From the NCBI RefSeq assembly GCF_001677475.2, contig NZ_CP015229.1: DNA of 64,000 nt; one strand, given 5' to 3'. Each line of letters begins with the position of its first letter. Positions within the stretch are counted from its first letter, which is position 1. Source of the DNA: Escherichia coli (GTDB taxonomy: Bacteria > Pseudomonadota > Gammaproteobacteria > Enterobacterales > Enterobacteriaceae). Made by a program: the position numbers and the translations under genes. Below, in pieces: positions 47,916 to 63,423 of the stretch. Under the pieces are notes generated by a model. It was not told the DNA's origin, searched no databases, and was given only the letters and a program-made list of their open reading frames with translations.

Positions 47916-48962
47916 TTAACGTCCTGCTTTCAGCTTCTGATAATACTCTTCATAAATGCTGCTGGCTGCGCCAACGTCATTCTGCCATTCACCATTTTTA
48001 ATGGTTTCAGCATCCGGGTAGAGCGTTTTATCGTTCGCCACTTCCGGGCTTAACAGCTTACGCGCCGCAAGGTTTGGCGTTGGATAACCGATAGTTTCGG
48101 CAACCTGTTTTGCCACATCCGGGCGCAGCAGGAAGTTGATCAGTTTCAGCGCGCCTTCTTTGTTTTTGGCATTCGCCGGAATTGCCAGGCTGTCCATCCA
48201 GAAAATGCCGCCTTCTTTCGGCCACACGACGTCAATTGGTGTACCCGCCTGGCGTGCAACGAAAGCAGAACCGTTCCAGATCATGCCGAGGTTAACTTCG
48301 CCTTCCATGTACGGGTTAGCCGGGTTATCGGAGTTAAACGCTGCGACGTTTGGCATCAGTTTTTTCAGCTCGTTATATGCAGCTTCAATCTCTTTCGGAT
48401 CGGTGGTGTTACCGGAATAGCCCAGCTTACGCAGCGCCATCTGGAACACTTCACGGGCATCGTCGGTCAGCAGCAGGCTGCCTTTGTACTCAGGCTTCCA
48501 CAGATCGGCCCAGCTGGTAACGGATTTCGGATCCACCGCATCACCGTTAACGCCAATCGCCGTCGCACCCCAGATATACGGAATGGAGTAGTCGTTATTC
48601 GGGTCAAAAGGCTTGTTGAGCATGTCTGGATCGAGATTGCTGAAGTTCGTTAACTTCGACTTGTCGATCTTCTGGATCATCCCTTCTTTACGCATTTTAT
48701 CGACGTAATAGGTTGAAGGAACCACCAGGTCATAGGCACCGTCTTTGTACGTTTTCAGCTTGGCATACATGGTTTCGTTCGACTCGTAAGTCGAATAGAT
48801 AACCTTAATACCGGTTTCTTTGGTGAACTGTTCAAGCAGTCCTGGCGGCACGTACTCGGTCCAGTTGTAGAAATACAGCGTGTTGTTGTCATCGGCGTGA
48901 GCGGCGCTCATGCCCAGTGCCAGAGCACCCGCCGCGAGCAGGTGGCGTGACCATTTTTTCAT
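47916..48962 (-). CDS. potD: Spermidine/putrescine ABC transporter periplasmic binding protein
   Basis: 348-aa ORF starting MKKWSRHLLAAGALALGMSAAHADDNNTLYFYNW. Confidence 0.97.
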   Translation of the reverse strand: MKKWSRHLLAAGALALGMSAAHADDNNTLYFYNWTEYVPPGLLEQFTKETGIKVIYSTYESNETMYAKLKTYKDGAYDLVVPSTYYVDKMRKEGMIQKIDKSKLTNFSNLDPDMLNKPFDPNNDYSIPYIWGATAIGVNGDAVDPKSVTSWADLWKPEYKGSLLLTDDAREVFQMALRKLGYSGNTTDPKEIEAAYNELKKLMPNVAAFNSDNPANPYMEGEVNLGMIWNGSAFVARQAGTPIDVVWPKEGGIFWMDSLAIPANAKNKEGALKLINFLLRPDVAKQVAETIGYPTPNLAARKLLSPEVANDKTLYPDAETIKNGEWQNDVGAASSIYEEYYQKLKAGR

Positions 48963-49753
48963 TTAACGTCCCCTGTGTTACCTTTCGTTTTATCACGAGC
49001 AATAAGCTGGCTGGCAATAACCATCACCAGCGACAGCACCAGTAATATGGTTGCCAGCGCGTTAACTTCCGGCGATACGCCGACTTTGACCATCGAATAA
49101 ATTTTTAACGGCAGAATTTCATAACTTGGTCCGGTGACGAACGAAGAAACTACCACATCGTCCATCGACAGGGTAAAGCTTAACACCCAGCCCGCCGCTA
49201 CCGCTGGCATTGCCAGTGGCAGAATGATTTTTCGCAGAATGGTAAATTCGCTGGCACCGAGATCTTTCGCCGCTTCCAGCATTCGCACGTCAAAACCTTT
49301 CAGGCGCGAATACACTGTCACCACCACAAATGGCAGGCAGAAGGTGATATGCGAGAACAGCAGCGACCAGAAGCCAAGCTGAATACCCAGCAGCATAAAC
49401 AGCACCAGCAGCGAAATCGCCATCACGATATCTGGTGACATCATCACTACAAACAGCATTCCGCTAACGAACGGCTTACCACGAAAGCGATAACGGTACA
49501 GTGCAACTGCCGTCAGTGAACCGATAAGCGTAGCAAACGTCGCCGAAAACACCGCCATTGTTAGTGAATGCTGCGCTGCCTGTAACAGGCTGTCGTTGTT
49601 CATCAGCAGGCTATACCATTTGGTGGTAAAACCCTGCCAGTTGATGCCAAAGCGCGAGCTGTTAAAGGAGTTCACAATCAAAATAATGATTGGGATATAC
49701 AGGTACGCGTAGATAGCGGTCATAAAACCGCCGCGAAGCAGTCGACCGATCAT
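48959..49753 (-). CDS. potC: Spermidine/putrescine ABC transporter permease PotC
   Basis: 264-aa ORF starting MIGRLLRGGFMTAIYAYLYIPIIILIVNSF, full length. Confidence 0.97.
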   Translation of the reverse strand: MIGRLLRGGFMTAIYAYLYIPIIILIVNSFNSSRFGINWQGFTTKWYSLLMNNDSLLQAAQHSLTMAVFSATFATLIGSLTAVALYRYRFRGKPFVSGMLFVVMMSPDIVMAISLLVLFMLLGIQLGFWSLLFSHITFCLPFVVVTVYSRLKGFDVRMLEAAKDLGASEFTILRKIILPLAMPAVAAGWVLSFTLSMDDVVVSSFVTGPSYEILPLKIYSMVKVGVSPEVNALATILLVLSLVMVIASQLIARDKTKGNTGDVK

Positions 49754-49776
49754 TCGAGTTCCACCTTCTTATTCAT
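49750..49776 (-). pseudogene. potB: 3'-terminal remnant of potB at the prophage junction (attL core lies here or just upstream)
   Basis: The minus-strand frame ends ...(M)NKKVELE then TGA, overlapping the potC ATG. This matches the PotB C-terminus as I recall it (...SRLLNKKVELE). The frame is closed upstream by TAA at 49873-49875, so only the tail of potB is present. Confidence 0.6.
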
Positions 49777-49819
49777 AAGGCGGGACACTTTCAGGATTTT
49801 GAATTTATTCAATTTTTTC

Positions 49820-49856
49820 CTTTCTCCAAAATCTCTCCAAAACGTTTCCCCAAAAC
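49820..49856. repeat. Three direct repeats in the phage arm next to attL; candidate Int arm-type sites
   Basis: Plus strand reads tctccaaaa (49823-49831), tctccaaaa (49834-49842) and ttccccaaaa (49846-49855). Confidence 0.4.
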
Positions 49857-49919
49857 TAGGCCACGCATTTTACAACACTTTTTTCCTGAGATGGTGACGG
49901 ATATTCCATATGGTGTTTG

Positions 49920-51038
49920 TCAAATAACCAACTTAACCCATTCCTGACCTCGAGTATCGTTATAGCGATCGGTGGTTGCCTGGACTTTATGTCCTAGTAA
50001 TGTTTTTGTATCGATACCCTGTGCACGGTACAGCCGTTCTGATAGAGAGCGTTGTTCATGAAATGTTGGCGGAGTTTTTCCTGCTGGTGGAATTATCCCA
50101 GCCAGATCCCGTGCTTTGGCAAAGTAGTCGCTCAGGTTGTCTTTACTCATCGACTTCGGTTGTTTCTGGTGCCGACTATGGATTAGATATGGACTTAATA
50201 TTCTGTCTCGGCACCCATCAATAACTTCTTTTAACGTTATCCCAATGGCATCACAGCGTAGTGTAAGCGGTAACGCCAGACGCATTCCGGTTTTTCCTTG
50301 GGTGATATGCAAGTGTTCGTTCCACACATCTGAAAAACGCATGTGGCAAATGTCATCACGGCGCTGACCAGTAACAATCGCAAGAAGCATTGCGTTACGG
50401 ATAAAGTGTTTTTCAGGCGTTGCGTTGTAAATTTTTTGCCAGTCTTCCAGGGTGAGTCTGGCTCTGGTTACTTTAGGGATTGGTTTACGGGTAGCCTCCG
50501 GAGGATTCCATCCAGGAGGAACTTCCCCTGCATGCTGTGCTTCTTTATAAATATCAAGCCATAATCCGCGATTTACTCTCGCTGTGCTGACCATGTCTTT
50601 ATCCAGCCACTCATCCAGTATTAATGCAAAGTCTCTTACTTCCAGTTCTTTCAATGGGTGGTTTCCCAGACGGGAAACCAGGAATGCAGCCATTCGCGCT
50701 TTTTCTTTGTGGGTTGTAGCTGCAATATCTCCATTTTTCAGGCGCGCGTCCTGTATTTTCAGATATCGATCAACCCATGCCTTTAATCTGATACCCCGAC
50801 GTTTTGTTGCTGATGGACTTTCATCAATTTTGCGCATGAAATATTCAGCTTCTGCTGCAGCTATTCGCTGATTGGCTGTGGAAGCGATTTTTTCTGCCTT
50901 ACCTTTGTCTGTTCCGAGTCCGTGAAATTTTCCAGTCACAGGATTTTTATACTGGTAGTAAACTCTGCCAGTTCTGCGATCAAACTTTTCGTAAAGACCG
51001 GCTACGTCAGTGCTGTTTTTTCGTGGCCTCGGTGACAT
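49920..51038 (-). CDS. int: Tyrosine integrase (lambda Int family)
   Basis: 372 aa. It has an N-terminal arm-binding-type segment (YYQYKNPVTGKFHGLG) and C-terminal catalytic residues (...HEQRSL..., GHKVQATTDRYND with the Tyr). Confidence 0.93.
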   Translation of the reverse strand: MSPRPRKNSTDVAGLYEKFDRRTGRVYYQYKNPVTGKFHGLGTDKGKAEKIASTANQRIAAAEAEYFMRKIDESPSATKRRGIRLKAWVDRYLKIQDARLKNGDIAATTHKEKARMAAFLVSRLGNHPLKELEVRDFALILDEWLDKDMVSTARVNRGLWLDIYKEAQHAGEVPPGWNPPEATRKPIPKVTRARLTLEDWQKIYNATPEKHFIRNAMLLAIVTGQRRDDICHMRFSDVWNEHLHITQGKTGMRLALPLTLRCDAIGITLKEVIDGCRDRILSPYLIHSRHQKQPKSMSKDNLSDYFAKARDLAGIIPPAGKTPPTFHEQRSLSERLYRAQGIDTKTLLGHKVQATTDRYNDTRGQEWVKLVI

Positions 51039-51276
51039 GAGTTAAAATCTCCTTCAGTGCATCATCATCGCCAGTATGAATTTCCGGCGCAATTCCCGTT
51101 TCACCAGGCCCAACAAATACTGCTCGGCGATCTATCAGCCAACGCCCACGAATTTTTTGTGGTCTTGGAACGATGTATCCTAGTTTTCCGTATTTCACCA
51201 GGGTAGTGTTTGTTATTGGGAGACTGAACCGTTTTGGTTTCCACTCGTCGAGCGTTATCAGGTACTGTTCGCTCAT
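51007..51276 (-). CDS. xis: Excisionase-like protein
   Basis: 89 aa starting at MSEQYLITLDEWKPKRFS...RWLIDRRAV, a lambda-Xis-like pattern. It overlaps the int start. An SD GGAG lies upstream. Confidence 0.7.
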   Translation of the reverse strand: MSEQYLITLDEWKPKRFSLPITNTTLVKYGKLGYIVPRPQKIRGRWLIDRRAVFVGPGETGIAPEIHTGDDDALKEILTHVTEATKKQH

Positions 51277-51337
51277 GGCTATCACTCCGGAACGCGCCAG
51301 TTGCAGAATATCAACGACAACTGGCGACGGTTGAACA

Positions 51338-53809
51338 TTAAAAATCAGCCTGATTCGGGATCAGTTTTTGCCAGATAGCTGAAACGTATTTTGCCTGGTG
51401 ACGAGCGTCATCAAGTGCATTATGGCGCTCACCTTCGAATGGGATAGCAGTTCTGGCATCGAAGTCTATGGTTTTCCCCAGCTCAACGATTGTGCGTACA
51501 TCGCGATCGTTGTAGTAACGCCACGGGCAGGGGATCCCCTGCCGTTCGTATGAACGGCGCAAAATCGTGTTGTCGAAGTTGGCTCCATTTCCCCAGACCT
51601 GAACAAAAAACTCACCGGAGTTTTCGGCGATAAATTCCCGCAATTGCAGTAGTGCATCATCTAACGGGATTTCATCGGTCATAATGGCAGACTGCGCTTC
51701 ACGTGATTGCTTCAGCCACCATTTAATGACGTCACGATCAATGACTCCGCCAGCAGTATCCAGATCGATGGTCTTGCTAAATTCCGGTCCCATATCACCG
51801 GTTTGCGGATCGAAAAATATTGCACCTATTGAGATAATCGGGGCATCAGGATTTTTTCCCATGGTTTCAAGGTCGATCATCAGATGAATCCCCGCTCTGC
51901 TGGTGGATGTGAGATTATGATGACTGTTCATCTTAATTAAGGGATCTGTCGCCTCGCCAGTTTTATTATCGCTGGCGTGATGCTGATTGCCGCCAGGGTT
52001 CTCCTTGTGTGGATGTTCAGCGCCTTCCATTTCCTCCGGATCATTTTCCTGAACTTCAGGCTGATTCTCTTCATCGAATATTTCCTGGTATGTTGCGTCA
52101 CCCATCACCGCGCCACAATCAGGGCAGTTGCCGCCACCGCTCTGACCGCAGGCTGTGCAGACTTTTTCCGGTTCCTGTTGCGCTACTGGCTCAGGTTGTT
52201 TCGTTTCTGGCTCGTTTTGTTGCGTATTTGGGCTGTTTTGTTCCGCTTTCTGGTCGTTCTGTTCCGTTTCTTGCTGGTTCTGGTTCACAGAATCGCGGGT
52301 TTCAATCCCCTTCACCCATTTCGGATCATTCGGATCGCTAATCCCTGCAACAAATTCACCACGTGATACTGCAAGCAGTTCATCGGCGTCATGCTGGCTG
52401 ATATTGGCTGCCTGCATAATTTTGTTTACTTCGTCAGCGGTAACTTTTACCGGCCCTGGTTGTGCGGTCGTGTCAGATGCACCAGTATTTTGTTGTGAAC
52501 CTGAGTATGTACCGTTTTTGCGGGCGAAATATTCTTCTTTCGTGATTTCAGTAGCCCCGGCAGCCAGTGCCTTATCCAGACCAGAAAGTTTGTTTGCGCG
52601 ACCGTATTTTTCGCCATCCTTGTCGGTGAAGAGGAAGTAGAATGGCCCCTCACGCTCTACAGATGGTTCGACTTCCACTTTGCATTCGGTTTTTTCGTTG
52701 TCCGGAATTGCCGTTTCCACTGCATCAGTTTCTGGTACTGGCGACGAGAGAGTATCAGTTGCGCTCTGATTTCTTCCTTCATCTTCAAACACGCCCTTTG
52801 TAGTCAGGTATTCAGTAATGTATTTGTTCAGTGCCACAGGGTCTTTGTGAATGTCGATCGGACGTTCACGAACAAGGCCAAAAATAGTCTGGCGGTCGTA
52901 GCGAAGGGCATCAGGCTGTTTGCGCATTGATGCCGAGATACGCTTCCAGTCTTCGCGGTCGTTGTCGATAACTTCATTTTTTGCCCAGCGATGGATGCTG
53001 CCATCAATGTTTCCGACATCCACATCACCAGGCCAGAGAGCGTAGGCCAGTTCGTCATCCAGTGTTTTCCATGTCTGCTTGTATTCGCGATGAGTGGCAG
53101 CAATGACCGGGCTGATTTTTCCTGTTGAATTTTCAGTGTGCTGTTGATTGGCTCTGGCGCGGGCGAGATCAACAACAGACGTGTATTTTCCGGTTTCCTT
53201 GCGTTCACCTTCGCGACGTTTTTTCCAGATGCGCATCTCTGCCTGAATTTCGGGCCATTTGGCACCAGGCTTACATTTATGCTTAACCCACCCGATGGCA
53301 TGCAGCTTAAGCTCCGGATACATGGCGTTAACTTCTGGCATTTTCATCAACGCTTCAACGATATGTCCGTCGAATGTTGCCATGTCTTCCTGCAACAATT
53401 CCTGCGCGCTAATCACCATATCAACGGTGATGTTTTCACATGTACCGAACTTAACCAGGACCGCGTTCTGTACTTCAAGGGACAGCTTGTCAAAATTGAC
53501 GTTAATAGGATCGGATTCTGGTTCGACCGGAATAAAGGAAGCGGATTCCTCATCCCAGCGGTTTTCCTGCATATATTCGGTATCCCAGGAGTCGATAGCA
53601 GGGCGGGGCATGCCGGGTTTATCTTCGCAGACAAGAAATTTATAAGCGCAGTCCTGAGCAGCAGGATATTGCTCCAGGAATTGCCAGGTAAATTTGGCAC
53701 GGGCGCGGCGTTCATCACCGGCTTCAATGGCAGTGGCTACAGCAACTGCGCCCTCTTCTTTTATTGCCTGTTCGTCCGGAATGGCGGCGCAAATAAAGAC
53801 TTTACTCAT
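51338..53809 (-). CDS. 823-aa multidomain protein: YdfE-like N-terminal region, low-complexity linker, zinc ribbon, C-terminal DEDDh 3'-5' exonuclease domain
   Basis: The C-terminus carries exonuclease motifs MIDLETMG, WGNGANFD and HNALDDARHQ. A CTACGQSGGGNCPDCG ribbon lies at about 52108-52162. The N-terminus MSKVFICAAIPDE... resembles my recollection of K-12 Qin YdfE. Confidence 0.8.
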   Translation of the reverse strand: MSKVFICAAIPDEQAIKEEGAVAVATAIEAGDERRARAKFTWQFLEQYPAAQDCAYKFLVCEDKPGMPRPAIDSWDTEYMQENRWDEESASFIPVEPESDPINVNFDKLSLEVQNAVLVKFGTCENITVDMVISAQELLQEDMATFDGHIVEALMKMPEVNAMYPELKLHAIGWVKHKCKPGAKWPEIQAEMRIWKKRREGERKETGKYTSVVDLARARANQQHTENSTGKISPVIAATHREYKQTWKTLDDELAYALWPGDVDVGNIDGSIHRWAKNEVIDNDREDWKRISASMRKQPDALRYDRQTIFGLVRERPIDIHKDPVALNKYITEYLTTKGVFEDEGRNQSATDTLSSPVPETDAVETAIPDNEKTECKVEVEPSVEREGPFYFLFTDKDGEKYGRANKLSGLDKALAAGATEITKEEYFARKNGTYSGSQQNTGASDTTAQPGPVKVTADEVNKIMQAANISQHDADELLAVSRGEFVAGISDPNDPKWVKGIETRDSVNQNQQETEQNDQKAEQNSPNTQQNEPETKQPEPVAQQEPEKVCTACGQSGGGNCPDCGAVMGDATYQEIFDEENQPEVQENDPEEMEGAEHPHKENPGGNQHHASDNKTGEATDPLIKMNSHHNLTSTSRAGIHLMIDLETMGKNPDAPIISIGAIFFDPQTGDMGPEFSKTIDLDTAGGVIDRDVIKWWLKQSREAQSAIMTDEIPLDDALLQLREFIAENSGEFFVQVWGNGANFDNTILRRSYERQGIPCPWRYYNDRDVRTIVELGKTIDFDARTAIPFEGERHNALDDARHQAKYVSAIWQKLIPNQADF

Positions 53810-53902
53810 TTTGTTTTAACCTCATTACAGATTTAAGGGTGAACAAATCCCTGCCATTGCTGGCATATAAAAATGAAACCGGATATTAATTACGGTGCTG
53901 TT

Positions 53903-54094
53903 TTAAAGTCCTGCCGGTATTTCGTTATTATTAGTGTGAGTAGTTTTATCTACCGGATAACAGTTACCGGGAATTTTTTGTTCTGCTGCTGCAGCCATGC
54001 ATTCTTTCATTGAACCGTATAAGCCAGTCACCAGCTCAAGAGATTCGCCGGAAACAAGATAAACTGTCAGAACGAGTGCAAATGTTGTATTCAT
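53903..54094 (-). CDS. ydfD: YdfD-like small membrane (lysis-associated) protein
   Basis: 63 aa starting MNTTFALVLTVYLVSGESLELVTG. It has an ATGA overlap with the dicB homologue, as in the Qin dicBF operon. Confidence 0.75.
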   Translation of the reverse strand: MNTTFALVLTVYLVSGESLELVTGLYGSMKECMAAAAEQKIPGNCYPVDKTTHTNNNEIPAGL

Positions 54095-54279
54095 TGTTTA
54101 TATCCTTTTTGCAGCAGGTCCAGACGAGCCAGCATTGAAGGAATGCATACTTCATTTAACAGGTCCTGCTCGAGTTTTCTCTGCTTAATGGCGTCTTCAA
54201 TAAATGTTTTGTCTCCAGTGATAACGCCAATTTCGAAACGAAGTTCAGACGTGCTGGCATTACATGATAACTTTTCCAT
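54091..54279 (-). CDS. dicB: DicB-like cell-division inhibitor
   Basis: 62 aa from the internal start MEKLSCNASTSELRFEIGVITGDKTFIEDAIKQRKLEQDLLNEVCIPSMLARLDLLQKGYKQ. It shares FEIGV, EDAI and SMLARL blocks with K-12 DicB. An SD GAGGA lies upstream. Confidence 0.8.
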   Translation of the reverse strand: MEKLSCNASTSELRFEIGVITGDKTFIEDAIKQRKLEQDLLNEVCIPSMLARLDLLQKGYKQ

Positions 54280-54449
54280 TATCGCGTCCTCAACAATGAA
54301 TTTTGTGATGCGGTGCCTGGTGCCTCCAGGTGACGTTAACCAGTTAACAATTAACGCAGGATACAGAGAATCCACCCATAACACTGTTTTTGGTTTTTAC
54401 TGTTCCGCGTGCGCTGAGCCGCATTCACCGCATCACAAAATTCACTTTT

Positions 54450-54508
54450 AAAAAAGGGCGGCAGAGCAGTCACGGAGTAAAACTGATACCGCCAAATGTC
54501 ACCAGAAT
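54450..54508 (-). ncRNA. dicF: DicF small RNA (ftsZ-targeting)
   Basis: The minus strand reads attctggtgacatttggcggtatcagttttactccgtgactgctctgccgcccTTTTTT. This is nearly identical to the K-12 DicF sequence I recall, including the terminator hairpin. It lies 170 nt upstream of dicB, as in Qin. Confidence 0.88.
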
Positions 54509-54821
54509 ATTGATAACAGAGGGCGTTGTAGCGGGGTTGTCACTTAAGCGTATGGTCAACCTGACAACCCGGTGTCCTCAACGGGGAAAGGCGTCCCTCC
54601 CACCCCCGCCATACTTACCGCCGCGCCATTTCGCGGGTCGCCACAACCGGAAGCGCACGGTCGAATTAAATTTAACGACACCGTGCAGTGAGACGAACTT
54701 CGCCGTGCGCTTTCGTGTTGTGTGCCTGCTTTTAACCACGTCAGGCGAGGTGGTTTCCGTCATTCCCCAACGACAGGAAATCTGTATAATCTGGGTATCC
54801 CCAACGATCCAAGGAAATCAT

Positions 54822-54923
54822 ATGACAGAGCAAAGAGCACAAGCAGGTGATGGTGTATGGACCGGGATGATATTCTTGACAGAATTTTTTATGGCTATTT
54901 TCTTGAGCAACTGTTTTCTGTAG
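54822..54923 (+). CDS. Candidate 33-aa upstream ORF with a hydrophobic C-terminus (speculative)
   Basis: MTEQRAQAGDGVWTGMIFLTEFFMAIFLSNCFL. A strong SD AAGGAA lies 5 nt upstream, and TATAAT (54785-54790) about 32 nt upstream. It overlaps the start of the 148-aa ORF in another frame. Confidence 0.3.
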   Translation: MTEQRAQAGDGVWTGMIFLTEFFMAIFLSNCFL

Positions 54924-55303
54924 CGACTGGTCGTCTCGATAAACTTCTCTCAGTAGTGAGTATTATCCTCGGTTCATCTGTCATTGGCGGATTCATTCCG
55001 GAAATTTCTGGCGTTTTTATTGTTGTGATCGCAACCGTCCAAACGATTTATGGATTCGGACAAAAGTCAGGTAATACCATGAGAAAATCCGCAGAATATT
55101 TGCAGCTTTTTGATGATGCAGAAAAATATTCTGATTCGGAATTGAAAATTCAGTTAAAAACTCTGGAAAAAACAGATGATCATATTTGGTCATCACTTAA
55201 AGATATTGCGATCTTAAAAACACAGATCAAAATAGGCGTCTCCATCGAACAACAAGAGAAGTTGCCCACAAAATCCAAATTGATGCGATTTCTTTGTGGT
55301 TAG
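54857..55303 (+). CDS. 148-aa two-transmembrane-helix protein of unknown function (moron, opposite to the dicBF operon)
   Basis: A long ORF in AT-rich DNA, where stop codons should be frequent. An SD AGGTGA lies upstream. Two adjacent hydrophobic helices (LLSVVSIILGSSVIGGF and ISGVFIVVIATVQTIYGF) are followed by a charged helical tail of about 80 aa. Confidence 0.7.
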   Translation: MDRDDILDRIFYGYFLEQLFSVATGRLDKLLSVVSIILGSSVIGGFIPEISGVFIVVIATVQTIYGFGQKSGNTMRKSAEYLQLFDDAEKYSDSELKIQLKTLEKTDDHIWSSLKDIAILKTQIKIGVSIEQQEKLPTKSKLMRFLCG

Positions 55304-55392
55304 GAATATCCAGATTGTTAAAGAGCATGCCGGAGGTTTATCCGTGTCCGGCGCACGCACTTCATCTGCGGAGAACTACTTGAGCTCATTGG

Positions 55393-55608
55393 TCAGTAGT
55401 TTTCAATCACTCGCGAAACGTTTAATGCCGCGCTTTTTGCCAGAGTGGTAATATCCTGCTCCGCTGACACCAGTTCTTTAGAGAGGCGCTCTTTGTAGTC
55501 AGCGGCCTGCTTCAGGTCATTAATGGCGCGTATCTTTCCGCACATCCATTCGTAAATTTCATCCTCGGTATAGTCTGGTGCGATGATGACGGGTTCTCGT
55601 TTCTGCAT
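55393..55608 (-). CDS. ydfC: YdfC-like protein
   Basis: 71-aa ORF starting MQKREPVIIAPDYTEDEIYEW, in the position of ydfC in the Qin dicBF operon. Confidence 0.65.
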   Translation of the reverse strand: MQKREPVIIAPDYTEDEIYEWMCGKIRAINDLKQAADYKERLSKELVSAEQDITTLAKSAALNVSRVIENY

Positions 55609-55637
55609 ACTGATTCCTCGCGGTGCCGCTTCGCTTA

Positions 55638-55766
55638 TCAGCCGTTAGATTTTGCCGAACTGGAAAGCGCCTGTTTAAACTCACTGAAGCTGAGAGCTTC
55701 TTCGCCTTCGGCAAGGTCTTCGAAGTATTCTTCGTAAGCCTTTTCCATGATTGCGTCGAAATCCAT
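55638..55766 (-). CDS. ydfB: YdfB-like 42-aa protein
   Basis: Manual translation gives MDFDAIMEKAYEEYFEDLAEGEEALSFSEFKQALSSSAKSNG. It is below the ORF-track size cutoff and replaces the implausible basic 70-aa ORF 55559..55771. Confidence 0.7.
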   Translation of the reverse strand: MDFDAIMEKAYEEYFEDLAEGEEALSFSEFKQALSSSAKSNG

Positions 55767-55767
55767 A

Positions 55768-55923
55768 TCACTCACCTGAATTTCTTTCCAGCCAGCGACG
55801 AGCGCCAGTTTCGGTTTTAAACGTTTTACTTTTGGTATACGTCATCGCGGTGAATGTGCCGTCCTGGTTGGGAAACACGCCGTACACCAGAGATTCGTTG
55901 TTGCCAAGATCGATAGTATCCAT
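55768..55923 (-). CDS. ydfA: YdfA/YdaF-like (DUF1391) 51-aa protein
   Basis: Internal start MDTIDLGNNESLVYGVFPNQDGTFTAMTYTKSKTFKTETGARRWLERNSGE, with an SD GGGGAAATGAGG upstream. Confidence 0.7.
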   Translation of the reverse strand: MDTIDLGNNESLVYGVFPNQDGTFTAMTYTKSKTFKTETGARRWLERNSGE

Positions 55924-56104
55924 GTTGACCTCATTTCCCCTTAACGCTGGGGTAGCGGAACTAAAAACCTGCTGCGCTGTTATACAAAGTGTTCCCGCCG
56001 TCATGTTCATACGCCTCGGGCTGGCTACTTAATCCCTGACCACTACCGGGTAACTCTAGGTATTGCCCTGTATTGTGTGGGACGGGATGGGTTGGTATGG
56101 GAAA

Positions 56105-56147
56105 ACTATAGGAAATGCCTAATTGCTTGTCAATAGGCTATGCCTAA
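56105..56147 (-). promoter_or_regulatory. PL-like promoter with OL operators
   Basis: On the minus strand: TTGACA (56128-56133), 17-nt spacer, TATAGT (56105-56110). Operator-like 15-mers ataggctatgcctaa (56133-56147) and ataggaaatgcctaa (56108-56122) overlap it. Confidence 0.6.
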
Positions 56148-56241
56148 TGATTTGGGTGCGACCTAATAGGTGATGGTTTGTGGGAGAGGTAGTAGGAGTT
56201 AACTAACGGGAACTAGGAATTTCCCGTCGGACCATATAAGT

Positions 56242-56718
56242 TTAAGTTCCTGTCTTGGTGATGTTCTGGCTTTTCCGTTTTGATTCTTGATTTTTCAGAT
56301 AGTTAGCTACCTTCATTTCCATTGCGGCAATGTAGGCGCGAACGTCATGATCAACCCAACTAGGCTCCGTAGCATTTCCAGATAAGAGGAAAGCCACAAT
56401 TGCTCTTTTTTCATCAGAGGCGGCTTGATAAAGGCTGTTTATGTCTAAAAGTTCACTTTTTGTATCTGAAGTGGATGGGGTTGGTATGGGGTATTCGTTA
56501 AGCCCCCAATGCTCTGGACCAACCACATCAGAAAAGAAACGCCATAGTTCTGGAAGTTTGTCTTTACTTATCGAACCTTTCTTAATCCAGTCATGGATTG
56601 ATGGTGGTTGGACTTTGAAATGACGTGCGATTTCCGCCTTTGATTTGACGGCTCCTGATGCAATTTTTTTGTTAATGGCCTGCTCTATCGCTCGGCCTAA
56701 GTCTTTACCACTAAGCAT
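56242..56718 (-). CDS. racR: Prophage repressor, RacR-like
   Basis: 158 aa starting MLSGKDLGRAIEQAINKKIASGAVKSKAEIARHFKVQPPSIHDWIKKGS (HTH). It is divergent from the ydaS/ydaT homologues, as in Rac. Confidence 0.8.
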   Translation of the reverse strand: MLSGKDLGRAIEQAINKKIASGAVKSKAEIARHFKVQPPSIHDWIKKGSISKDKLPELWRFFSDVVGPEHWGLNEYPIPTPSTSDTKSELLDINSLYQAASDEKRAIVAFLLSGNATEPSWVDHDVRAYIAAMEMKVANYLKNQESKRKSQNITKTGT

Positions 56719-56746
56719 TGCTTAATAGTCTCCTATGCGCATCGCG

Positions 56747-56815
56747 TTAGGCAATACCTACTCTCGAAGCGTTAGGCATAGCCTATTGACAATCACATTA
56801 GGCTAAGCCTAATAT
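56747..56815 (+). promoter_or_regulatory. PR-like promoter with three OR operators
   Basis: TTGACA (56786-56791), 18-nt spacer, TAATAT (56810-56815). The 15-mers are ttaggcaatacctac (56747-56761), ttaggcatagcctat (56772-56786) and ttaggctaagcctaa (56798-56812), spaced 25-26 bp. Confidence 0.6.
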
Positions 56816-56842
56816 TATTGTGTGTTTTTTGGAGTTCATTCG

Positions 56843-57166
56843 ATGAAAAAAGATAACTATTCATTCAAACGAGCTTGTGCTGTTGTCGGTGGGCAATCAG
56901 CAATGGCTAGGCTTTTAGGTGTATCTCCTCCAAGCGTAAATCAATGGATCAAAGGTGTACGTCAGTTGCCTGCTGAGAGATGTCCTGCGATTGAACGAGC
57001 AACAAAAGGTGGTGTCCTGTGTGAAGAACTTCGTCCTGATGTTGATTGGACATACTTACGACGCTCGTCATGTTATTCGCAGAATATGTCGATGAAGCAA
57101 CCAAATGACGAAAACGATCATACCCGAAGCATCAAGAGGCAAATGATTCATGAAAATCAAACATGA
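56843..57166 (+). CDS. ydaS: Cro-like HTH protein, YdaS-like
   Basis: 107 aa from MKKDNYSFKRACAVVGGQSAMARLLGVSPPSVNQWIKG. An SD GGAG lies 8 nt upstream. Confidence 0.75.
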   Translation: MKKDNYSFKRACAVVGGQSAMARLLGVSPPSVNQWIKGVRQLPAERCPAIERATKGGVLCEELRPDVDWTYLRRSSCYSQNMSMKQPNDENDHTRSIKRQMIHENQT

Positions 57167-57575
57167 GCATATCCGCATGGCGATGAATGCCTGGGCATAC
57201 CCTGATGGTGAGAAAGTTCCTGCAGCTGAAATAGCCCGGACTTATTTCGAACTGGGAATGACGTTCCCGGAACTGTACGACGACAGCCATCCGGAAGCCC
57301 TGGCCCGTAATACCCAGAAAATTTTCCGTTGGCTGGATAAAGACACCCCTGATGCTGTTGAAAAAATGCAGGCTCTGTTACCGGCGATCGAAAAGGCGAT
57401 GCCGCCTTTGCTGGTGGCCCGTATGCGCAGCCACAGTTCTGAGTATTACCGTGAGATTGTCGAACGGAGGGATCGGTTGGTGAAAGATGTCGACGATTTT
57501 GTTGCGTCAGCGGTTGTTTTGTATGACCAGATGAATCGCGGCGGCCCGGCAGGAAATGCCGTGGTGATGCACTAA
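57150..57575 (+). CDS. ydaT: YdaT-like (CII-position) protein
   Basis: 141 aa starting MKIKHEHIRMAMNAWAYPDGEKVPAAEIARTYFELG. It follows ydaS, as in Rac. Confidence 0.75.
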   Translation: MKIKHEHIRMAMNAWAYPDGEKVPAAEIARTYFELGMTFPELYDDSHPEALARNTQKIFRWLDKDTPDAVEKMQALLPAIEKAMPPLLVARMRSHSSEYYREIVERRDRLVKDVDDFVASAVVLYDQMNRGGPAGNAVVMH

Positions 57576-57597
57576 CAGCACGGTGTTCGGGGGTTTT

Positions 57598-58566
57598 ATG
57601 AGCAGCAAGCTTCATGGTCTTGTCTGGGAAGGATGCGCCTTCACCGGCATGATCTTATCCCGGGTGGCAGTGATGGCCCGTCTTGCAGACTACAGCAATG
57701 ACGAGGGCGTGTCATGGCCTGCTATTGAAACTATCCGGCGTCAGATCGGTGCAAGAAGTGAATCCACAGTGAAATCGGCTATTGCAGAACTGGCGAAAGA
57801 GGGCTGGCTGACGAAGGAAGAGCGTAAGGTCGGTGGGCGTAATGTAAGCAATATCTATCGGCTTAATGTGGAAAAACTCGAAGCAGCAGCTGCGGCGGCG
57901 CGTGAGTCATATAAACCGAAAAGAAAAATTAGCCCGGCAAAAAATGACCCGTTAACAGTTGACCCGTCAAATATTGACCCCTCAACGGTTGACCCGTCAA
58001 ATTTTGATGGATCAACTGTTGATAAAAAACTGCCGATTAGGGGGACGATGATTGACCCCGATCAGTCAGTATTAAAACCTGATCCGTCAGATGAAAGATC
58101 TTCTTGTCCTGACGTTTCACTGCCGGACAAAAAACAATCATCACCAGTTGAGCGATTTCTGGAGAAACACCCGGATGCGCATACCTGGAATGTGCAGAAG
58201 CGACAGTGGGGTACCCGTGAGGATGTCGCCTGTGCGCAGTGGATTTGGGGACGGGTTGTTGCGTTGTATGAACAGGCCGCCAGTGATGATGGTGAGGTAT
58301 CACGCCCCAGAGAACCTAACTGGACGACCTGGGCGAATGATGTGCGCATGATGCGTATGCTGGATGGACGTAGTCACCGGCAGATTTGTGAAATGTTTGG
58401 GCGTGTCCAGCGGGATTCGTTCTGGGTAAAAAACATCATGAGTCCGGCAAAACTCCGGGAAAAATGGGATGAGCTGGTTATTCGTCTGGGGCGTTCGCCT
58501 GTACAGCGTTGCGTGAATCACATTTCTGAACCGGATACCGAAATTCCGCCGGGGTTCAGGGGGTAA
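57598..58566 (+). CDS. Replication initiator O-like protein (YdaU-like, N-terminal wHTH)
   Basis: 322 aa from MSSKLHGLVWEG. It contains the internal iteron array, which encodes DPLTVDPSNIDPSTVDPSNFDGSTVD. Confidence 0.75.
   Translation: MSSKLHGLVWEGCAFTGMILSRVAVMARLADYSNDEGVSWPAIETIRRQIGARSESTVKSAIAELAKEGWLTKEERKVGGRNVSNIYRLNVEKLEAAAAAARESYKPKRKISPAKNDPLTVDPSNIDPSTVDPSNFDGSTVDKKLPIRGTMIDPDQSVLKPDPSDERSSCPDVSLPDKKQSSPVERFLEKHPDAHTWNVQKRQWGTREDVACAQWIWGRVVALYEQAASDDGEVSRPREPNWTTWANDVRMMRMLDGRSHRQICEMFGRVQRDSFWVKNIMSPAKLREKWDELVIRLGRSPVQRCVNHISEPDTEIPPGFRG
57945..58019. repeat. Five tandem 15-bp iterons (candidate phage origin) inside the O-like gene
   Basis: tgacccgttaacagt, tgacccgtcaaatat, tgacccctcaacggt, tgacccgtcaaattt and tgatggatcaactgt, at exact 15-bp phasing. 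Degenerate copies occur at 58053 and 58080, with an A-rich stretch in between. Confidence 0.7.
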
Positions 58567-58608
58567 GTGCTGATTTGAGGTCATGAAGTTATTTTCTCAG
58601 GAGAGTTT

Positions 58609-59010
58609 ATGGGGGCTATTTATACCGAAGAACAGCGGGAAAGGTTACAGCGTCACATCGTTGACCTTGTACGTAAAAACGGGCGTATGACAATGCCACA
58701 ACTGGCATCGGCAACATATGCTTCACATGATTCCATTCGCCGGTACCTGAAGATGCTGGTGAGCCAGGGCGAAGTGTATGTTGTCAGCGGAAAAGGGGTA
58801 TTCCTTTCAGAGAGAGTTTACCGTGAATGGCTGGCAAGTTCGGCAAAAAAATCAAGGGTTATCCGCAAACCAGCACAAAAACAGGGTAAGGCCGGAGTAC
58901 AACCCTACGACCGGCACCAGAACGTAATTTGCCGGGAATGTCGTAACAGCGAATCAATGCAGCGGGTACTGGCTTTTTACAGGGGTGGATTTCAGGAGCT
59001 CGTATCGTGA
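58609..59010 (+). CDS. Hypothetical winged-helix-like protein
   Basis: 133-aa ORF starting MGAIYTEEQRERLQRHIVDLVRKNGRMTMPQLASATYASHDSIRRYLKMLVSQGEVYVV. Confidence 0.6.
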   Translation: MGAIYTEEQRERLQRHIVDLVRKNGRMTMPQLASATYASHDSIRRYLKMLVSQGEVYVVSGKGVFLSERVYREWLASSAKKSRVIRKPAQKQGKAGVQPYDRHQNVICRECRNSESMQRVLAFYRGGFQELVS

Positions 59011-59315
59011 AAAAGTGGGTGCGTGCCGAGATACTGATTCTACGGCAGTGTGCGGGAACAATGACGGTGGAATGCATCGGGATGCTTATTGGTCGTAGTG
59101 AGGCTGCGGTCAGAACGAAAGCGCGGGAACTGGGTATTAGTATGATGTTACGGGGTGATTATCACCAGTCAGCAAAATATCCGCAGAGTGATATTGAGCT
59201 GGCGCGACAGCTGCATCAACGTGGCGTGTCCAGGAGAGAAATCGCCAGAAAATTTGGAATGCCGCTGCGCACAGTGAATAACTACGTTTATTTCGACAGG
59301 AGGGTGTCTGCGTGA
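59007..59315 (+). CDS. Hypothetical HTH protein (two sigma-region-4-like HTH repeats)
   Basis: 102-aa ORF containing IGMLIGRSEAAVRTKARELGIS and REIARKFGMPLRTVNNYV. Confidence 0.6.
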   Translation: MKKWVRAEILILRQCAGTMTVECIGMLIGRSEAAVRTKARELGISMMLRGDYHQSAKYPQSDIELARQLHQRGVSRREIARKFGMPLRTVNNYVYFDRRVSA

Positions 59316-59557
59316 AAATCCTGTATCAGGATTACGGCCCGGTGGGACAGGTGGTTATCAGCAGTACTGTAATGGAGTTCCGGAAGCATAACCGTGTGGT
59401 GGATGCAGTGCTGTTAGCCTGTCCGGGGATATCGGCGAGCCGTGCAGGTGTGTTTTTTATGAAGACGAAGTTATATGGCAGTACAGCGTGGATAAAGAAG
59501 GCGTACCGGGTAGCGTTGCAGGAGGTAAACAGTGAGCGAATCGGCAACCATTCTTGA
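59312..59557 (+). CDS. Hypothetical phage protein
   Basis: 81-aa ORF translationally coupled to its neighbours. Confidence 0.5.
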   Translation: MKILYQDYGPVGQVVISSTVMEFRKHNRVVDAVLLACPGISASRAGVFFMKTKLYGSTAWIKKAYRVALQEVNSERIGNHS

Positions 59558-60020
59558 TATGTCCTGTGGCAGTCGTATGTTCTGGTTCGATAAGAATGAC
59601 GACCGGGCGATATTTAGCGATATCAGAAAAGAAGAGCACACATTATGTGATGGACGACGCCTGATAATTAGCCCTGACCTGATAGCAGATTTTCGTGCAT
59701 TACCATTTGCAGACGCATCGTTTCCGGTTGTTGTATTCGACCCTCCGCATCTTGAGCGTGTTGGTGATAACGCCTGGATGGGAAAGAAATATGGACGGCT
59801 GAATAAAGATACCTGGCGTGATGATTTGCGGCAGGGATTTAAAGAAGCCTTTCGTGTGTTGTGGCCACACGGTGTTCTGATTTTTAAATGGAATGAAACG
59901 CAAATACCTGTCCGCCAGATATTGGCACTAACCGACGCGAAACCAATCATCAGCCAGCGCACCGGTAAGAACGATAAAACACATTGGATTATTTTTGTGA
60001 AGGAAGCGACCAGTGGGTAA
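59532..60020 (+). CDS. Small SAM-dependent methyltransferase, putative orphan DNA (N6-A/N4-C) methyltransferase (GTG start)
   Basis: 162 aa with a motif I-like ILDMSCGSRMF and a motif IV-like VVFDPPH. A strong SD AGGAGG lies upstream of the GTG. There is no adjacent endonuclease gene. Confidence 0.65.
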   Translation: MSESATILDMSCGSRMFWFDKNDDRAIFSDIRKEEHTLCDGRRLIISPDLIADFRALPFADASFPVVVFDPPHLERVGDNAWMGKKYGRLNKDTWRDDLRQGFKEAFRVLWPHGVLIFKWNETQIPVRQILALTDAKPIISQRTGKNDKTHWIIFVKEATSG

Positions 60021-60267
60021 ATCAAAATGCCAGGTTTATGGCAACAAGATAGAACCGTGTACGGCACTGGCAAACTCCCTTGAGCATGATGCTGAATACA
60101 CGACGCGAAAAGGTCTGCTGATATACGAAATCTGGAATGAGAGTTTAACTCGCGGCCCTGATTTGGTGATGTTGCGATCCGGTGAATTTTCTAAATCACC
60201 AGTTCGGGTTTCATTTTTCCCGTTCTGCGGTGAAAGTCTGAAAACGTGGGAGAACAGAAATGAATGA
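60013..60267 (+). CDS. Hypothetical phage protein
   Basis: 84-aa ORF with a GTG start and an SD AAGGAA 7 nt upstream. Confidence 0.5.
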   Translation: MGKSKCQVYGNKIEPCTALANSLEHDAEYTTRKGLLIYEIWNESLTRGPDLVMLRSGEFSKSPVRVSFFPFCGESLKTWENRNE

Positions 60268-60571
60268 AATTAGAGAAATACCAGTAGAACGTGATGAATA
60301 TGGCTGCTGGACACATCCAGAATATGAAAAATTCTGTGACGGTCGGGAATATATTTCAACGGAAGAGTTTAACGCCTGGATGAAGGAAAATAATCTTCAG
60401 TGGACTATTTGCAGCATGGATGAAGATTATTTAAATCCGGTTGCAGATGACCCCGATATTTCCGCCTGGGAACCGGAACGACCAGAGGGCGAAGGCTGGT
60501 TTATTAGCTCCATTCATGATACTGAAGATGGTCCGGTTTGTGTCTGGTTGCGAAACAAGGTGATGGCATAG
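60260..60571 (+). CDS. Hypothetical acidic phage protein
   Basis: 103-aa ORF coupled to its neighbours. Confidence 0.55.
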   Translation: MNEIREIPVERDEYGCWTHPEYEKFCDGREYISTEEFNAWMKENNLQWTICSMDEDYLNPVADDPDISAWEPERPEGEGWFISSIHDTEDGPVCVWLRNKVMA

Positions 60572-60874
60572 ATGAGAATAGAAAAAGCGAAAGCACAGCT
60601 CAGGATAATGCTTGCTGGTCCGGCTGCGAGTTATATGACACATTCACCAGCCATAAAGAAGGTTCTTGATGAACTGGAAGCCAAAGACAAGCGCATTGCA
60701 GAACTGGAGGCGAGGGAAATCCAGTTACCTGCTGGCTTCGACCTTCGATATGGACACCCGATAAATGCTGATGAGCGACATGTGATGATACCTAAAGAAA
60801 ATGGCAACTGGATTTATCGGACTGACTTAGAGCACGTACTACGTGTTGCAGGGATTCGAATTAAAGGAGACTAA
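60572..60874 (+). CDS. Hypothetical phage protein (coiled-coil segment)
   Basis: 100-aa ORF; the ATG immediately follows the previous stop. Confidence 0.55.
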   Translation: MRIEKAKAQLRIMLAGPAASYMTHSPAIKKVLDELEAKDKRIAELEAREIQLPAGFDLRYGHPINADERHVMIPKENGNWIYRTDLEHVLRVAGIRIKGD

Positions 60875-60875
60875 C

Positions 60876-61232
60876 GTGGAAATAAAACCAGAAGATGAGT
60901 TAAGTAATATTGTTTTATTTCCGGTAAAAGAGGATGACCCACGTAATCAGGTTAATTTTCTTTATGAGCCATCGGAAAGACCATATTGTCATCACGCCTC
61001 TGTCCGGGTTGACGAAAAAGAGCGTCAGGTCCGCTGTAAAATCTGCGGTGCAGTTGTGGAGCTATTTGACTGGATGCTCTCTGTGGCGAAAAGAGAAACC
61101 AGACTGGCAGATGATGTAAGGATCTTGCGCCAGGAGGAACGGGAAAGGCGGAGAAATATAGAAAAGCTAATTCAGATTGAGCGTAACGTGAAAGCGCGGA
61201 TACGCAGGGTGACAAAATCCAGAACTGAATAA
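60876..61232 (+). CDS. Hypothetical phage protein with a CxxC motif (KICGAV) and a basic coiled-coil tail (GTG start)
   Basis: 118 aa from VEIKPEDELS. An SD AGGAG lies 7 nt upstream, and the start is just after the previous stop. Confidence 0.5.
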   Translation: MEIKPEDELSNIVLFPVKEDDPRNQVNFLYEPSERPYCHHASVRVDEKERQVRCKICGAVVELFDWMLSVAKRETRLADDVRILRQEERERRRNIEKLIQIERNVKARIRRVTKSRTE

Positions 61233-61280
61233 TTAAATTTAGCTCTGTTAAAAATTTAATCCTTAACCGGAGGTATATCA

Positions 61281-61493
61281 ATGTCAAACGCACAGAAAGT
61301 TATTAACGCTGAAAAATATAACGAGTGGGTGAAAAAGTTCTCAGAGCAGATTTTTAAAATTACTGGCGACGAGAATGCGGCAAAAAATGAATTAGAGCCG
61401 TGGACACCTGAAGGTGTCGACCCAAATTATTGCTGGTGGGATGTTGATCCAGTTGATGCTGCAAATGAAGCTATGAGTTATCACAACGATTAA
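61281..61493 (+). CDS. Hypothetical acidic phage protein
   Basis: 70-aa ORF with an SD GGAGG upstream. Confidence 0.5.
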   Translation: MSNAQKVINAEKYNEWVKKFSEQIFKITGDENAAKNELEPWTPEGVDPNYCWWDVDPVDAANEAMSYHND

Positions 61494-61528
61494 TGTCAGG
61501 AGGCCGCCCGAAAGGGCGGTAATGAAAA

Positions 61529-62362
61529 GTGACTGAATTAACCAAAGAGCAATTAATCGAAGAAGCCAAATTAAAAATAGCGATTGCGAAATGCTACCCC
61601 AGTTCAGGGATGGCACGGGTAGAGGGCGAGTTATTCAAAATTGCACTGGCATCGCTGGAAGCAGAACCAATAGGTGCTTTCCACATTGTAGAACAGCAAG
61701 TTGACGGAACAAGTTACTATATCAAGGATGGGGAATGGCCTATTGATACTGGGATTATTGAAGTCTACGCCGCCTCACCGATGACGGTAGTGCTGAACGA
61801 TGTATCTGGACCTCTTGCTCTTGCTTACAAAGAGCTTACACCTGCGATTATGCGCAACCATATCGCTGTATTCGAACGATACGGAATAACCCCAAACGAT
61901 AGCATTACTACAATTCATGCGCTTCGAATTGCGCTGGATGGCATAGAGCGGAGCGACGCCATGCTTCATGGACGTCAGCCATGCCATCAAATTACCGCCT
62001 CAATGGCAAAAGCTATTGCGCTTAAACTTGGTGCCGAACTGAATAACGAAGAAGCAGAGATTTTCGCGGATGGGTATAACACCGCCATGCTTCATGCCGA
62101 AAACTTTCGGGAAAATAAGAATTCGTCAACCAATAATTTTCGGATAACCTCGGAAACGTCAACCAACTCTCCGGCAATCCCTGATGAGGTGTTGTCCGCA
62201 ATCCTGAAGGTCGCCAGGCTTCGTGCAGATTTCGATGCTTCTGAAGGTGACAGGCGAGGTATCGGTGGTTGTCTGGATGAGGCCGAGCAAGAACTTATCG
62301 TTACCATTAACAAATACGCCAGTCAGATCGCAGTAGAAGCGATACAGGGGGCGCACCAATGA
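61529..62362 (+). CDS. Hypothetical phage protein (Ead/Ea22-like region, GTG start)
   Basis: 277-aa ORF. The assignment rests only on its position and general resemblance to lambdoid accessory proteins. Confidence 0.5.
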   Translation: MTELTKEQLIEEAKLKIAIAKCYPSSGMARVEGELFKIALASLEAEPIGAFHIVEQQVDGTSYYIKDGEWPIDTGIIEVYAASPMTVVLNDVSGPLALAYKELTPAIMRNHIAVFERYGITPNDSITTIHALRIALDGIERSDAMLHGRQPCHQITASMAKAIALKLGAELNNEEAEIFADGYNTAMLHAENFRENKNSSTNNFRITSETSTNSPAIPDEVLSAILKVARLRADFDASEGDRRGIGGCLDEAEQELIVTINKYASQIAVEAIQGAHQ

Positions 62363-62471
62363 GCCGGCCCGATGCATTTGCAGGCGTTGCTATAGCTATT
62401 GCTTTTCCAGTATATGTTATTTGTCGGTGGGGGTAAAAACGTTCGCCGGAATTCACACCAAGGGAGGGAAT

Positions 62472-62576
62472 ATGTCGGATGATATTTCACTGGTAATGGA
62501 AGGCGCTCTGGCTGTTATTGCTGTTGTGGGTGTTTACTGCCTGGTTGTGTTTTTGATGGATCGCCTGGGGAACTGA
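62472..62576 (+). CDS. Candidate 34-aa single-TM peptide
   Basis: MSDDISLVMEGALAVIAVVGVYCLVVFLMDRLGN, with a strong SD AGGGAGGGAA upstream. It is below the ORF-track cutoff. Confidence 0.4.
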   Translation: MSDDISLVMEGALAVIAVVGVYCLVVFLMDRLGN

Positions 62577-62711
62577 ATTCATTCCGTATGGGAATTCCCA
62601 TATCGGGCAAAAACGGTTTGCTGTAAAGCGAGAGTTAAGTAGAATTGCTGCGGGTGCTTGAGGCTATCTGCCTCGGGCATGCCGCCGTAAGGCAGACAGA
62701 GAAAAGCCCCA

Positions 62712-62772
62712 GTTAACATTACGCGTCCTGCAAGACGCTTAACATTAATCTGAGGCCATATCTATGACTTGC
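62712..62772 (-). ncRNA. sok: Sok-like antisense RNA (approximate ends)
   Basis: A minus-strand promoter, TTGCCT (62802-62807), 17 nt, TAACCT (62779-62784), would start transcription near 62772, antisense to the mok start. A hairpin gcgtc-ttgcag-gacgc lies at 62722-62737. Confidence 0.4.
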
Positions 62773-62976
62773 ACACGTAGGTTAGCCTCTTACGTGCCGA
62801 AAGGCAAGGAGAAGCAGGCTATGAAGCAGCAAAAGGCGATGTTAATCGCCCTGATCGTCATCTGTTTAACCGTTATAGTGACGGCACTGGTAACGAGGAA
62901 AGACCTCTGCGAGGTACGAATCCGAACCGGCCAGACGGAGGTCGCTGTCTTCACAGCTTACGAACCTGAGGAGTAA
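62764..62976 (+). CDS. mok: Mok-like overlapping reading frame (modulator of hok translation)
   Basis: 70-aa ORF in frame with and containing hok, which is the typical hok/mok arrangement. Confidence 0.5.
   Translation: MTCTRRLASYVPKGKEKQAMKQQKAMLIALIVICLTVIVTALVTRKDLCEVRIRTGQTEVAVFTAYEPEE
62821..62976 (+). CDS. hok: Hok/Gef-family type I toxin (HokD/RelF-like)
   Basis: 51 aa, MKQQKAMLIALIVICLTVIVTALVTRKDLCEVRIRTGQTEVAVFTAYEPEE. It matches my recollection of K-12 HokD. Confidence 0.9.
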   Translation: MKQQKAMLIALIVICLTVIVTALVTRKDLCEVRIRTGQTEVAVFTAYEPEE

Positions 62977-63143
62977 GAGACCTGGCGGGGGAGAAATCCC
63001 TCGCCACCTCTGATGTGTCAGGCTTCCTCAACGCACCCGCACTTAACCCGCTTCGGCGGGTTTTGTTTTTTCTGTGCATTCTGGTTTACAATTCGCACGC
63101 CAGCCTGAACAACTGGCACCTGCTGCGCCAGCAGAGACAACCG

Positions 63144-63422: not shown

Positions 63423-63423
63423 C

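Follow-up and report, generated by a model that had tools for sequence, protein, structure and literature searches.

What is a single, very large nuclease gene doing in the place where lambda carries exo-bet-gam? The question is raised by a prophage of Escherichia coli, about 14 kb of which are visible within the 64,000-nucleotide stretch of DNA analysed here (contig NZ_CP015229.1 of assembly GCF_001677475.2; hereafter the window). Between the dicB-ydfD genes and xis-int lies one open reading frame (ORF) of 823 amino acids (aa), at 51338-53809 on the minus strand, with an ATG start and its stop codon at 51338-51340. A preliminary description of this DNA had reported a single fusion protein between xis and the dicB module, in the exo-bet-gam slot, and we found it exactly as described. 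As judged from its sequence, the gene combines a RecE-family scaffold with a catalytically intact DEDDh 3'-5' exonuclease of the DexA type, which takes the place of the RecE nuclease, and it comes without recT. The family is known, annotated and uncharacterised; no experimental work on the 823-aa protein was found in the searchable literature.

The first 345 residues (52775-53809, minus strand) form a structured region with three sub-domains, one alpha/beta (aa 1-95) and two helical (aa 105-205 and 245-340), and close homologues carry the precomputed Pfam families YdfE_N (PF27430) and YdfE_C (PF27432). They are followed by a middle region (aa 346-640; 51890-52774, minus strand) of acidic and Q-rich linkers with conserved islands, homologous to residues ~278-591 of Rac RecE; the islands include GPFYF...GRANKL (~388-405) and SRGEFVAGISDPNDPKWVKG (482-501). 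An N-terminal region of about 470 aa of unknown function had been proposed before, and its extent is better drawn as ~345 structured residues, after which conserved islands and linkers reach to aa 640. The Q/E/N/P-rich linker and the CxxC...CxxC zinc ribbon noticed at the same time were both located, the former at ~aa 505-548 (nt 52166-52297) and the latter at C551-x2-C554-x7-C562-x2-C565 (52115-52159, minus strand). The ribbon is also present in Rac RecE, and Pfam DZR matches it weakly over aa 548-569. PHROG 2082 ('exonuclease') spans the whole protein (1-823/823).

The C-terminal domain (aa 642-813; 51371-51886, minus strand), already recognised as a DEDDh 3'-5' exonuclease, matches the Rv2179c-like 3'-5' exoribonuclease family PF16473, which also holds DexA, with an E value of 4.5e-66 (222 bits against a cutoff of 27; profile positions 2-177 of 177). 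Its motifs are MIDLETMG (aa 644-651), NGANFD (741-746) and HNALDDA (796-802). The catalytic pentad D646, E648, D746, H796 and D801 aligns with D7, E9, D119, H186 and D191 of T4 DexA and is conserved across the fused clade. T4 DexA (8KEL/8KEN) is also the best sequence match of the domain in the PDB (E 8e-6); it is a phage 3'-5' DNA exonuclease of the same DEDDh family that works at DNA ends, but it shares only ~28-32% identity with the window domain and is a stand-alone 227-aa protein, dimeric or tetrameric, with extra loops. Closer relatives are the stand-alone genes of ~186 aa, annotated as 'exonuclease', that lie directly upstream of xis-int in lambdoid phages, that is, in the same slot. 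These proteins (Flotzy, 186 aa, 60% identity; PY54 gp51) are 53-60% identical to the C-terminal domain and have a nearly identical C-terminal helix (HNAL.DARHQAKYVSAIWQKLIP), but they lack the RecE scaffold and keep, at the position of DexA W152, a Trp. The swapped module may plausibly have come from such a gene. The stand-alone homologues start at the position of M644 (MIDLET...), with GGGGA lying about 10 nt ahead of this codon, and a free 180-aa exonuclease made by internal initiation is conceivable.

The N-terminal part had been described as of unknown function, but our comparisons place it: aa 1-624 correspond to the non-catalytic region of RecE-family proteins. The NCBIfam model exoVIII (PRK09709) matches aa 237-626 over its positions 260-603, with 275 bits against a cutoff of 1269, so that the equivalog level is not reached. 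In BLASTP against K-12, residues 278-591 of Rac RecE align to aa 262-625, the zinc ribbon and the acidic linker being near-identical, and an 886-aa E. coli paralogue of the RecE type (P0021) is ~95% identical over residues 1-510, with an alignment that continues to aa 624. The shared non-catalytic N-terminal and middle regions, zinc ribbon included, place the protein in the RecE family. In homologue searches the YdfE_N/YdfE_C N-terminus was found paired with either of two C-termini, PF16473 in proteins of 823-826 aa or the PD-(D/E)XK nuclease PF12684 in those of 886 aa, the latter being 94-96% identical to the window protein over the first 510 residues. Rac RecE and the 886-aa variants (YdfE_N, YdfE_C and DUF3799) end in a PD-(D/E)XK 5'-3' nuclease, whereas the window protein ends in the DEDDh 3'-5' exonuclease; no Pfam match to PF12684 or PF06630 at E<=1 was obtained in the 823 aa.

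The point at which the two forms part is sharp. Alignments with RecE-type relatives end at aa 624/625, and the mosaic junction falls after ...TDPLI (aa 624; 51930-51940, minus strand). This position corresponds to residue 591 of Rac RecE, at the N-terminal edge of its nuclease domain (residues 564-866 according to a review, PMC11611040). From the junction to the DEDDh domain there is a spacer of 17 residues (MNSHHNLTSTSRAGIHL; 51878-51937, minus strand) with an in-frame ATG (M627) at its start. At the DNA level, the window from 54496 to 51936 is 89% identical to positions 5325-7832 of a locus carrying the 886-aa form (L004), the similarity running from the DicF/dicB region and ending at 51936. 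That locus continues beyond the gene with recT, lar, DUF1187, xis and int. RecE loci in general occupy the same slot, between dicB-ydfD (or kil) on the upstream side and xis-int on the downstream side, but there recT, lar and ydaC come after the RecE gene, while none of the three is found between the 823-aa ORF and xis-int. Since homology stops at the edge of the RecE nuclease domain, the gene is a RecE scaffold whose nuclease module, along with the recT-lar-ydaC block, has given way to the DEDDh module. As had been suspected from its resemblance to the start of the ORF and its truncation by an insertion sequence, the K-12 pseudogene ydfE of the Qin prophage is an IS2-truncated remnant of the 823-aa gene: it is 92% identical to the first 256 aa and keeps the order dicB-ydfD-ydfE, but IS2E cuts it there and everything beyond aa 256, the exonuclease included, is gone.

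Does the prophage nevertheless encode a recombination system of the RecET or Red type? Pfam and PHROG scans of the plausible ORFs of 49920-64000 returned no RecT, Bet, Erf, Sak or Gam, and neither an annealase nor Gam is annotated across the complete genomes of phages Tritos and mEp460_ev081, in agreement with what had been stated before. By tblastn, RecT is missing from all six examined loci with the DEDDh variant (L001, L002, L008, L009, L012 and L013), two of which carry damaged copies, and the RecE-type locus L004 has one. Within the protein itself, no annealase fold or profile (Rad52, RecT, Erf or Sak4) was found in aa 1-640, structural modelling having covered aa 1-345. With neither annealase nor Gam, recombination of the RecET/Red type is therefore not encoded in the visible prophage, and the earlier caution against reading the locus as such a system was right.

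What was also suggested at that time, that the protein could act elsewhere rather than in recombination, was unwarranted, as its scaffold is shared with RecE and with fusions to Rad52-fold annealases. Some relatives join the same scaffold to such an annealase according to a fold search, in which the top hit overall was a designed helical repeat on the C-terminal helices. The assignment rests on that fold search, the tests at the sequence level having failed: hmmsearch of the Rad52-like domain against the PDB gave no match, and hhalign against human RAD52 aligned a 22-residue signature only, at a probability of 2%. As these relatives carry annealases, the scaffold is tied to recombination modules. 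An Enterobacter cloacae protein of 555 aa (P0272) joins a YdfE-like N-terminus to a ParB-like domain (precomputed Pfam PF17762), and may be an instance of the remote relatives of ParB described by Zheng et al. for lambdoid early-left regions.

A class of phages without a Rec module and rich in Chi sites was described by Zheng et al. in 2025 (PMC12315714), and the phages considered here resemble it. As in that class, there is no single-strand annealing protein (SSAP), no nuclease of the Exo/RecE type and no anti-RecBCD gene, in the window from 49920 to 64000 as well as, by annotation, in Tritos and mEp460_ev081, and Chi is enriched in one orientation. Chi sites in the active and the other orientation number 9 and 2 in Tritos, 7 and 2 in mEp460_ev081, and 6 and 0 in the 14 kb of prophage in the window, where 0.2-0.9 per strand are expected. 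Against the at least 8 sites in the active orientation, with few in the other, that define the class, Tritos reaches the number, mEp460_ev081 stays just under it and the prophage in the window is partial. The paper mentions DnaQ-type nuclease genes, sporadic and near int, as well as 'RecE-2' proteins that lack a nuclease, and analyses neither; LLS itself has other early-left genes, and a RecE-scaffold fusion is neither described nor functionally analysed there. One Chi site (GCTGGTGG; 51899-51906, plus strand) lies inside the 823-aa gene, ~30 nt from the mosaic junction and at an identical gene offset (561) in Tritos and mEp460_ev081. A link between this site and the junction was considered; the site stands on the side of the junction opposite to that predicted for a canonical Chi-stimulated exchange.

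Taken together, we favour, with a probability of roughly one half, a role in lytic growth in which the scaffold directs the trimming of 3' ends of DNA, alongside the host RecBCD/RecA pathway and not as annealing of the RecET type. The protein would be made in lytic growth from the early-left operon, whose presumed promoter is a pL-like site (TTGACA-17-TATAGT, 11/12 in a consensus scan; 56105-56133, minus strand) that adjoins the repressor gene and is the one strong promoter-like site upstream. The scaffold would then bring the nuclease to the same site or partner as the N-terminus of RecE, where the DEDDh domain, dependent on Mg2+, would shorten DNA from its 3' ends, like T4 DexA at breaks. 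Single-strand annealing of the RecET type would be impossible without an annealase, and the carrier phages presumably rely on host RecBCD/RecA for recombination-dependent replication, because they have no Rec module and are Chi-rich. In this sense, trimming of 3' ends may modulate or accompany the RecBCD/RecA pathway: 3' tails might, for instance, be blunted or taken off, or fragments degraded. Several points weigh against this proposal. Polarity, preference for DNA or RNA and the role in vivo are all drawn from homology, at 28-36% identity to characterised enzymes, and the founder of the family, Rv2179c, was described as an exoribonuclease. Expression from pL is deduced from the consensus scan and gene order only. 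The function of the RecE N-terminal region is unknown according to a review (PMC11611040), which makes 'targeting' an assumption. Finally, according to Zheng et al. (PMC12315714), 3'-5' exonucleases generally antagonise recombination and do not promote it.

A wider and distinctly more tentative idea, to which we give a minor share of belief, is that the RecE/YdfE N-terminal scaffold is a general delivery module of lambdoid recombination regions that docks varied effectors onto one common target, the DEDDh version being the accessory of a third strategy that depends on host RecBCD and Chi. The effectors would be the 5'-3' nuclease, the Rad52-type annealase, the ParB-like domain and the DEDDh exonuclease, and the target may be DNA ends, the replisome or RecBCD. 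Trimming of 3' ends would then make phage ends good substrates for RecBCD, or limit illegitimate annealing. If this holds, the commonest 'exoVIII' gene of E. coli would define an interface between phage and host recombination that has not been described before.

Anti-defence, scavenging and defence are also possible roles of the protein. A nuclease for host takeover or anti-defence would degrade fragments of host DNA during lytic growth and recycle their nucleotides, the classical role of DexA, or destroy immune nucleic acids such as retron multicopy single-stranded DNA or guide and signal molecules. We judge this improbable, while taking it more seriously than the other rivals of 3'-end trimming. 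T4 DexA is annotated with a role in the degradation of host DNA (PMC12153337), the domain was found by tblastn in 1525 phage records from many lineages, virulent phages among them, and the stand-alone homologue of Flotzy adjoins, in the early-left operon, a gene for a deoxyribonucleoside 5'-monophosphate phosphatase. However, temperate lambdoid phages are not known as degraders of the host chromosome, and no known anti-defence family was matched. Nor would host takeover account for the welding of the domain to a RecE scaffold exactly at the nuclease boundary, or for the annealases found on that scaffold in relatives.

Somewhat less probable still is a part in defence or superinfection exclusion, in which the DEDDh domain would degrade incoming phage DNA with modified bases and the scaffold would only position or regulate it. 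The idea comes from the work of Kang et al. (Nucleic Acids Research, 2025), who described that DexA switches between unmodified and 5-hydroxymethylcytosine (5hmC) DNA and that EcD ('HREX'), a stand-alone E. coli homologue, cleaves 5hmC DNA, spares unmodified double-stranded DNA and protects against T4 (PMC12153337). EcD belongs to the same domain family and is encoded in Escherichia mobile DNA, but has ~189 aa and no scaffold. Exclusion genes are frequent in prophage early-left regions, and this prophage has dicB and a Ren-like gene. By the residues used in that study, the window domain gives a divided picture. DexA D90, a tetramer contact, aligns with Ala (A719), as in EcD. The 5hmC-recognition residues W152 and D169 of DexA, on the other hand, are not kept: the former is Tyr766, at a position that varies (Y/C/T/W) within the fused clade, and the segment bearing the latter is a gap in the alignments, in a region where alignment certainty is low. 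The published primers, used in a scan of viral contigs, led to an EcD-like protein of 189 aa (the reverse primer is 1 base off and the identification is probable), which is only 36% identical to the window domain. Given this identity, the variable Tyr766 and the missing D169 loop, neither the anti-T4 activity nor the 5hmC specificity of EcD can be transferred to the window protein. The gene also lies deep in a repressed early-left operon, and the consensus scan found no promoter comparable to the pL-like site directly upstream of it. A search with PADLOC for known defence systems returned a generic CRISPR-associated DEDDh match only (E 3e-5).

The Pfam name of the family suggests another substrate, namely RNA. 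As an exonuclease on RNA 3' ends, like Rv2179c, the protein would turn over or process transcripts of the operon, including the mRNA that contains DicF; NCBI labels many copies '3'-5' exoribonuclease', and the DicF RNA, which lies in the same transcript region, is processed out of it. We consider this quite unlikely, as the solved structure that matches best by sequence is that of DexA, a DNA exonuclease, and not that of Rv2179c, and the fusion partners of the family are DNA recombination proteins.

The gene is widespread. In megablast, 3532 of the 5426 complete E. coli genomes (~65%) carry it at a coverage of 80% or more, annotated as '3'-5' exonuclease' or 'exonuclease'; as the part shared with RecE-like genes is 76% of the gene, this coverage requires part of the DEDDh segment. 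Carriers include prophages of pathogenic strains and Stx-phage-associated prophages, and phages mEp460_ev081, Tritos, HannyBb, Evi and PhiR42_1 as well as the PPompW prophages have the gene in full length, often under the mistaken name 'exodeoxyribonuclease VIII'. mEp460 is a viable temperate phage (PMC9836094), and the gene order dicB-ydfD-gene-xis-int is identical in mEp460_ev081 and Tritos. A scan of genome contigs yielded seven loci, all from Escherichia or Shigella except one in a metagenome-assembled genome. The flanking integrases vary between loci and dicB-ydfD is constant. Pairwise ratios of nonsynonymous to synonymous substitution (dN/dS) against five homologues, calculated without the frameshifted L009 copy, show purifying selection on both modules, with 0.15-0.17 over aa 1-350 and 0.11-0.17 over the DEDDh domain; the linker-rich middle gives 0.29-0.35. 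That the gene is a non-functional mosaic relic of a RecE gene hitch-hiking in prophages, as truncated or frameshifted copies such as K-12 ydfE, L009 and L013 might suggest, is very improbable and was rejected on these ratios, on the intact catalytic residues and on the conservation of the gene, which is present in 3532 genomes and keeps its length of exactly 823 aa in viable phages and from one Escherichia species to another. In several phage records (H14, H16-H21), the name 'exodeoxyribonuclease VIII / ds DNA exonuclease' is given to the DEDDh-type gene or to parts of it; for the catalytic domain this name is wrong.

By its presence in ~65% of complete genomes, this is one of the commonest uncharacterised nucleases in E. 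coli. The labels 'exodeoxyribonuclease VIII' and 'RecE' carried by thousands of E. coli and phage records are misleading, there being no RecE nuclease and no RecT, and so are calls of prophages as 'recombination-proficient' that are built on them. The clean module swap constitutes a natural experiment on an old question, the role of the large N-terminal region of RecE. This role has practical value, because full-length RecE improves linear-linear recombineering. The swap bears, furthermore, on how lambdoid phages without a recombinase of their own use host RecBCD and Chi.

Regarding the surroundings of the gene, xis (Exc; 51007-51285, minus strand) is immediately downstream of the ORF and is directly followed by the integrase gene (49920-51038, minus strand). 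Upstream are ydfD (DUF1482; 53903-54094, minus strand) and dicB, for which the listed ORF runs from 54091 to 54384 on the minus strand. The listed ORF of 97 aa starts with GTG and the DicB domain begins at Met36, and the true dicB is probably 54091-54279, encoding 62 aa. Further upstream is the DicF small RNA (54456-54507, minus strand; Rfam, 77 bits), and the ydfD-dicB-DicF linkage is kept in all DEDDh-variant loci examined. A 148-aa ORF (phrog_6315; 54857-55303, plus strand) lies on the opposite strand within the early-left operon, between DicF/dicB and ydfA-like genes, and is possibly a moron. The Pfam and PHROG matches in 49920-64000 include a replication initiator, a Ren-like protein, a methyltransferase and hok/sok. 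Genes for the Ren-like exclusion protein (58609-59010, plus strand) and the DNA methyltransferase (59532-60020, plus strand) are in the early-right region, and the hok/sok-type toxin-antitoxin locus is at 62652-62976 (plus strand), where the sok RNA (Rfam, 110 bits) overlaps a MokW-like ORF. On its other side, the prophage int abuts potC (potD-potC-int; 47916-51038), a junction present in 1614 complete E. coli genomes, and the host flank has a best identity of 98.7% to any complete E. coli genome in the collection.

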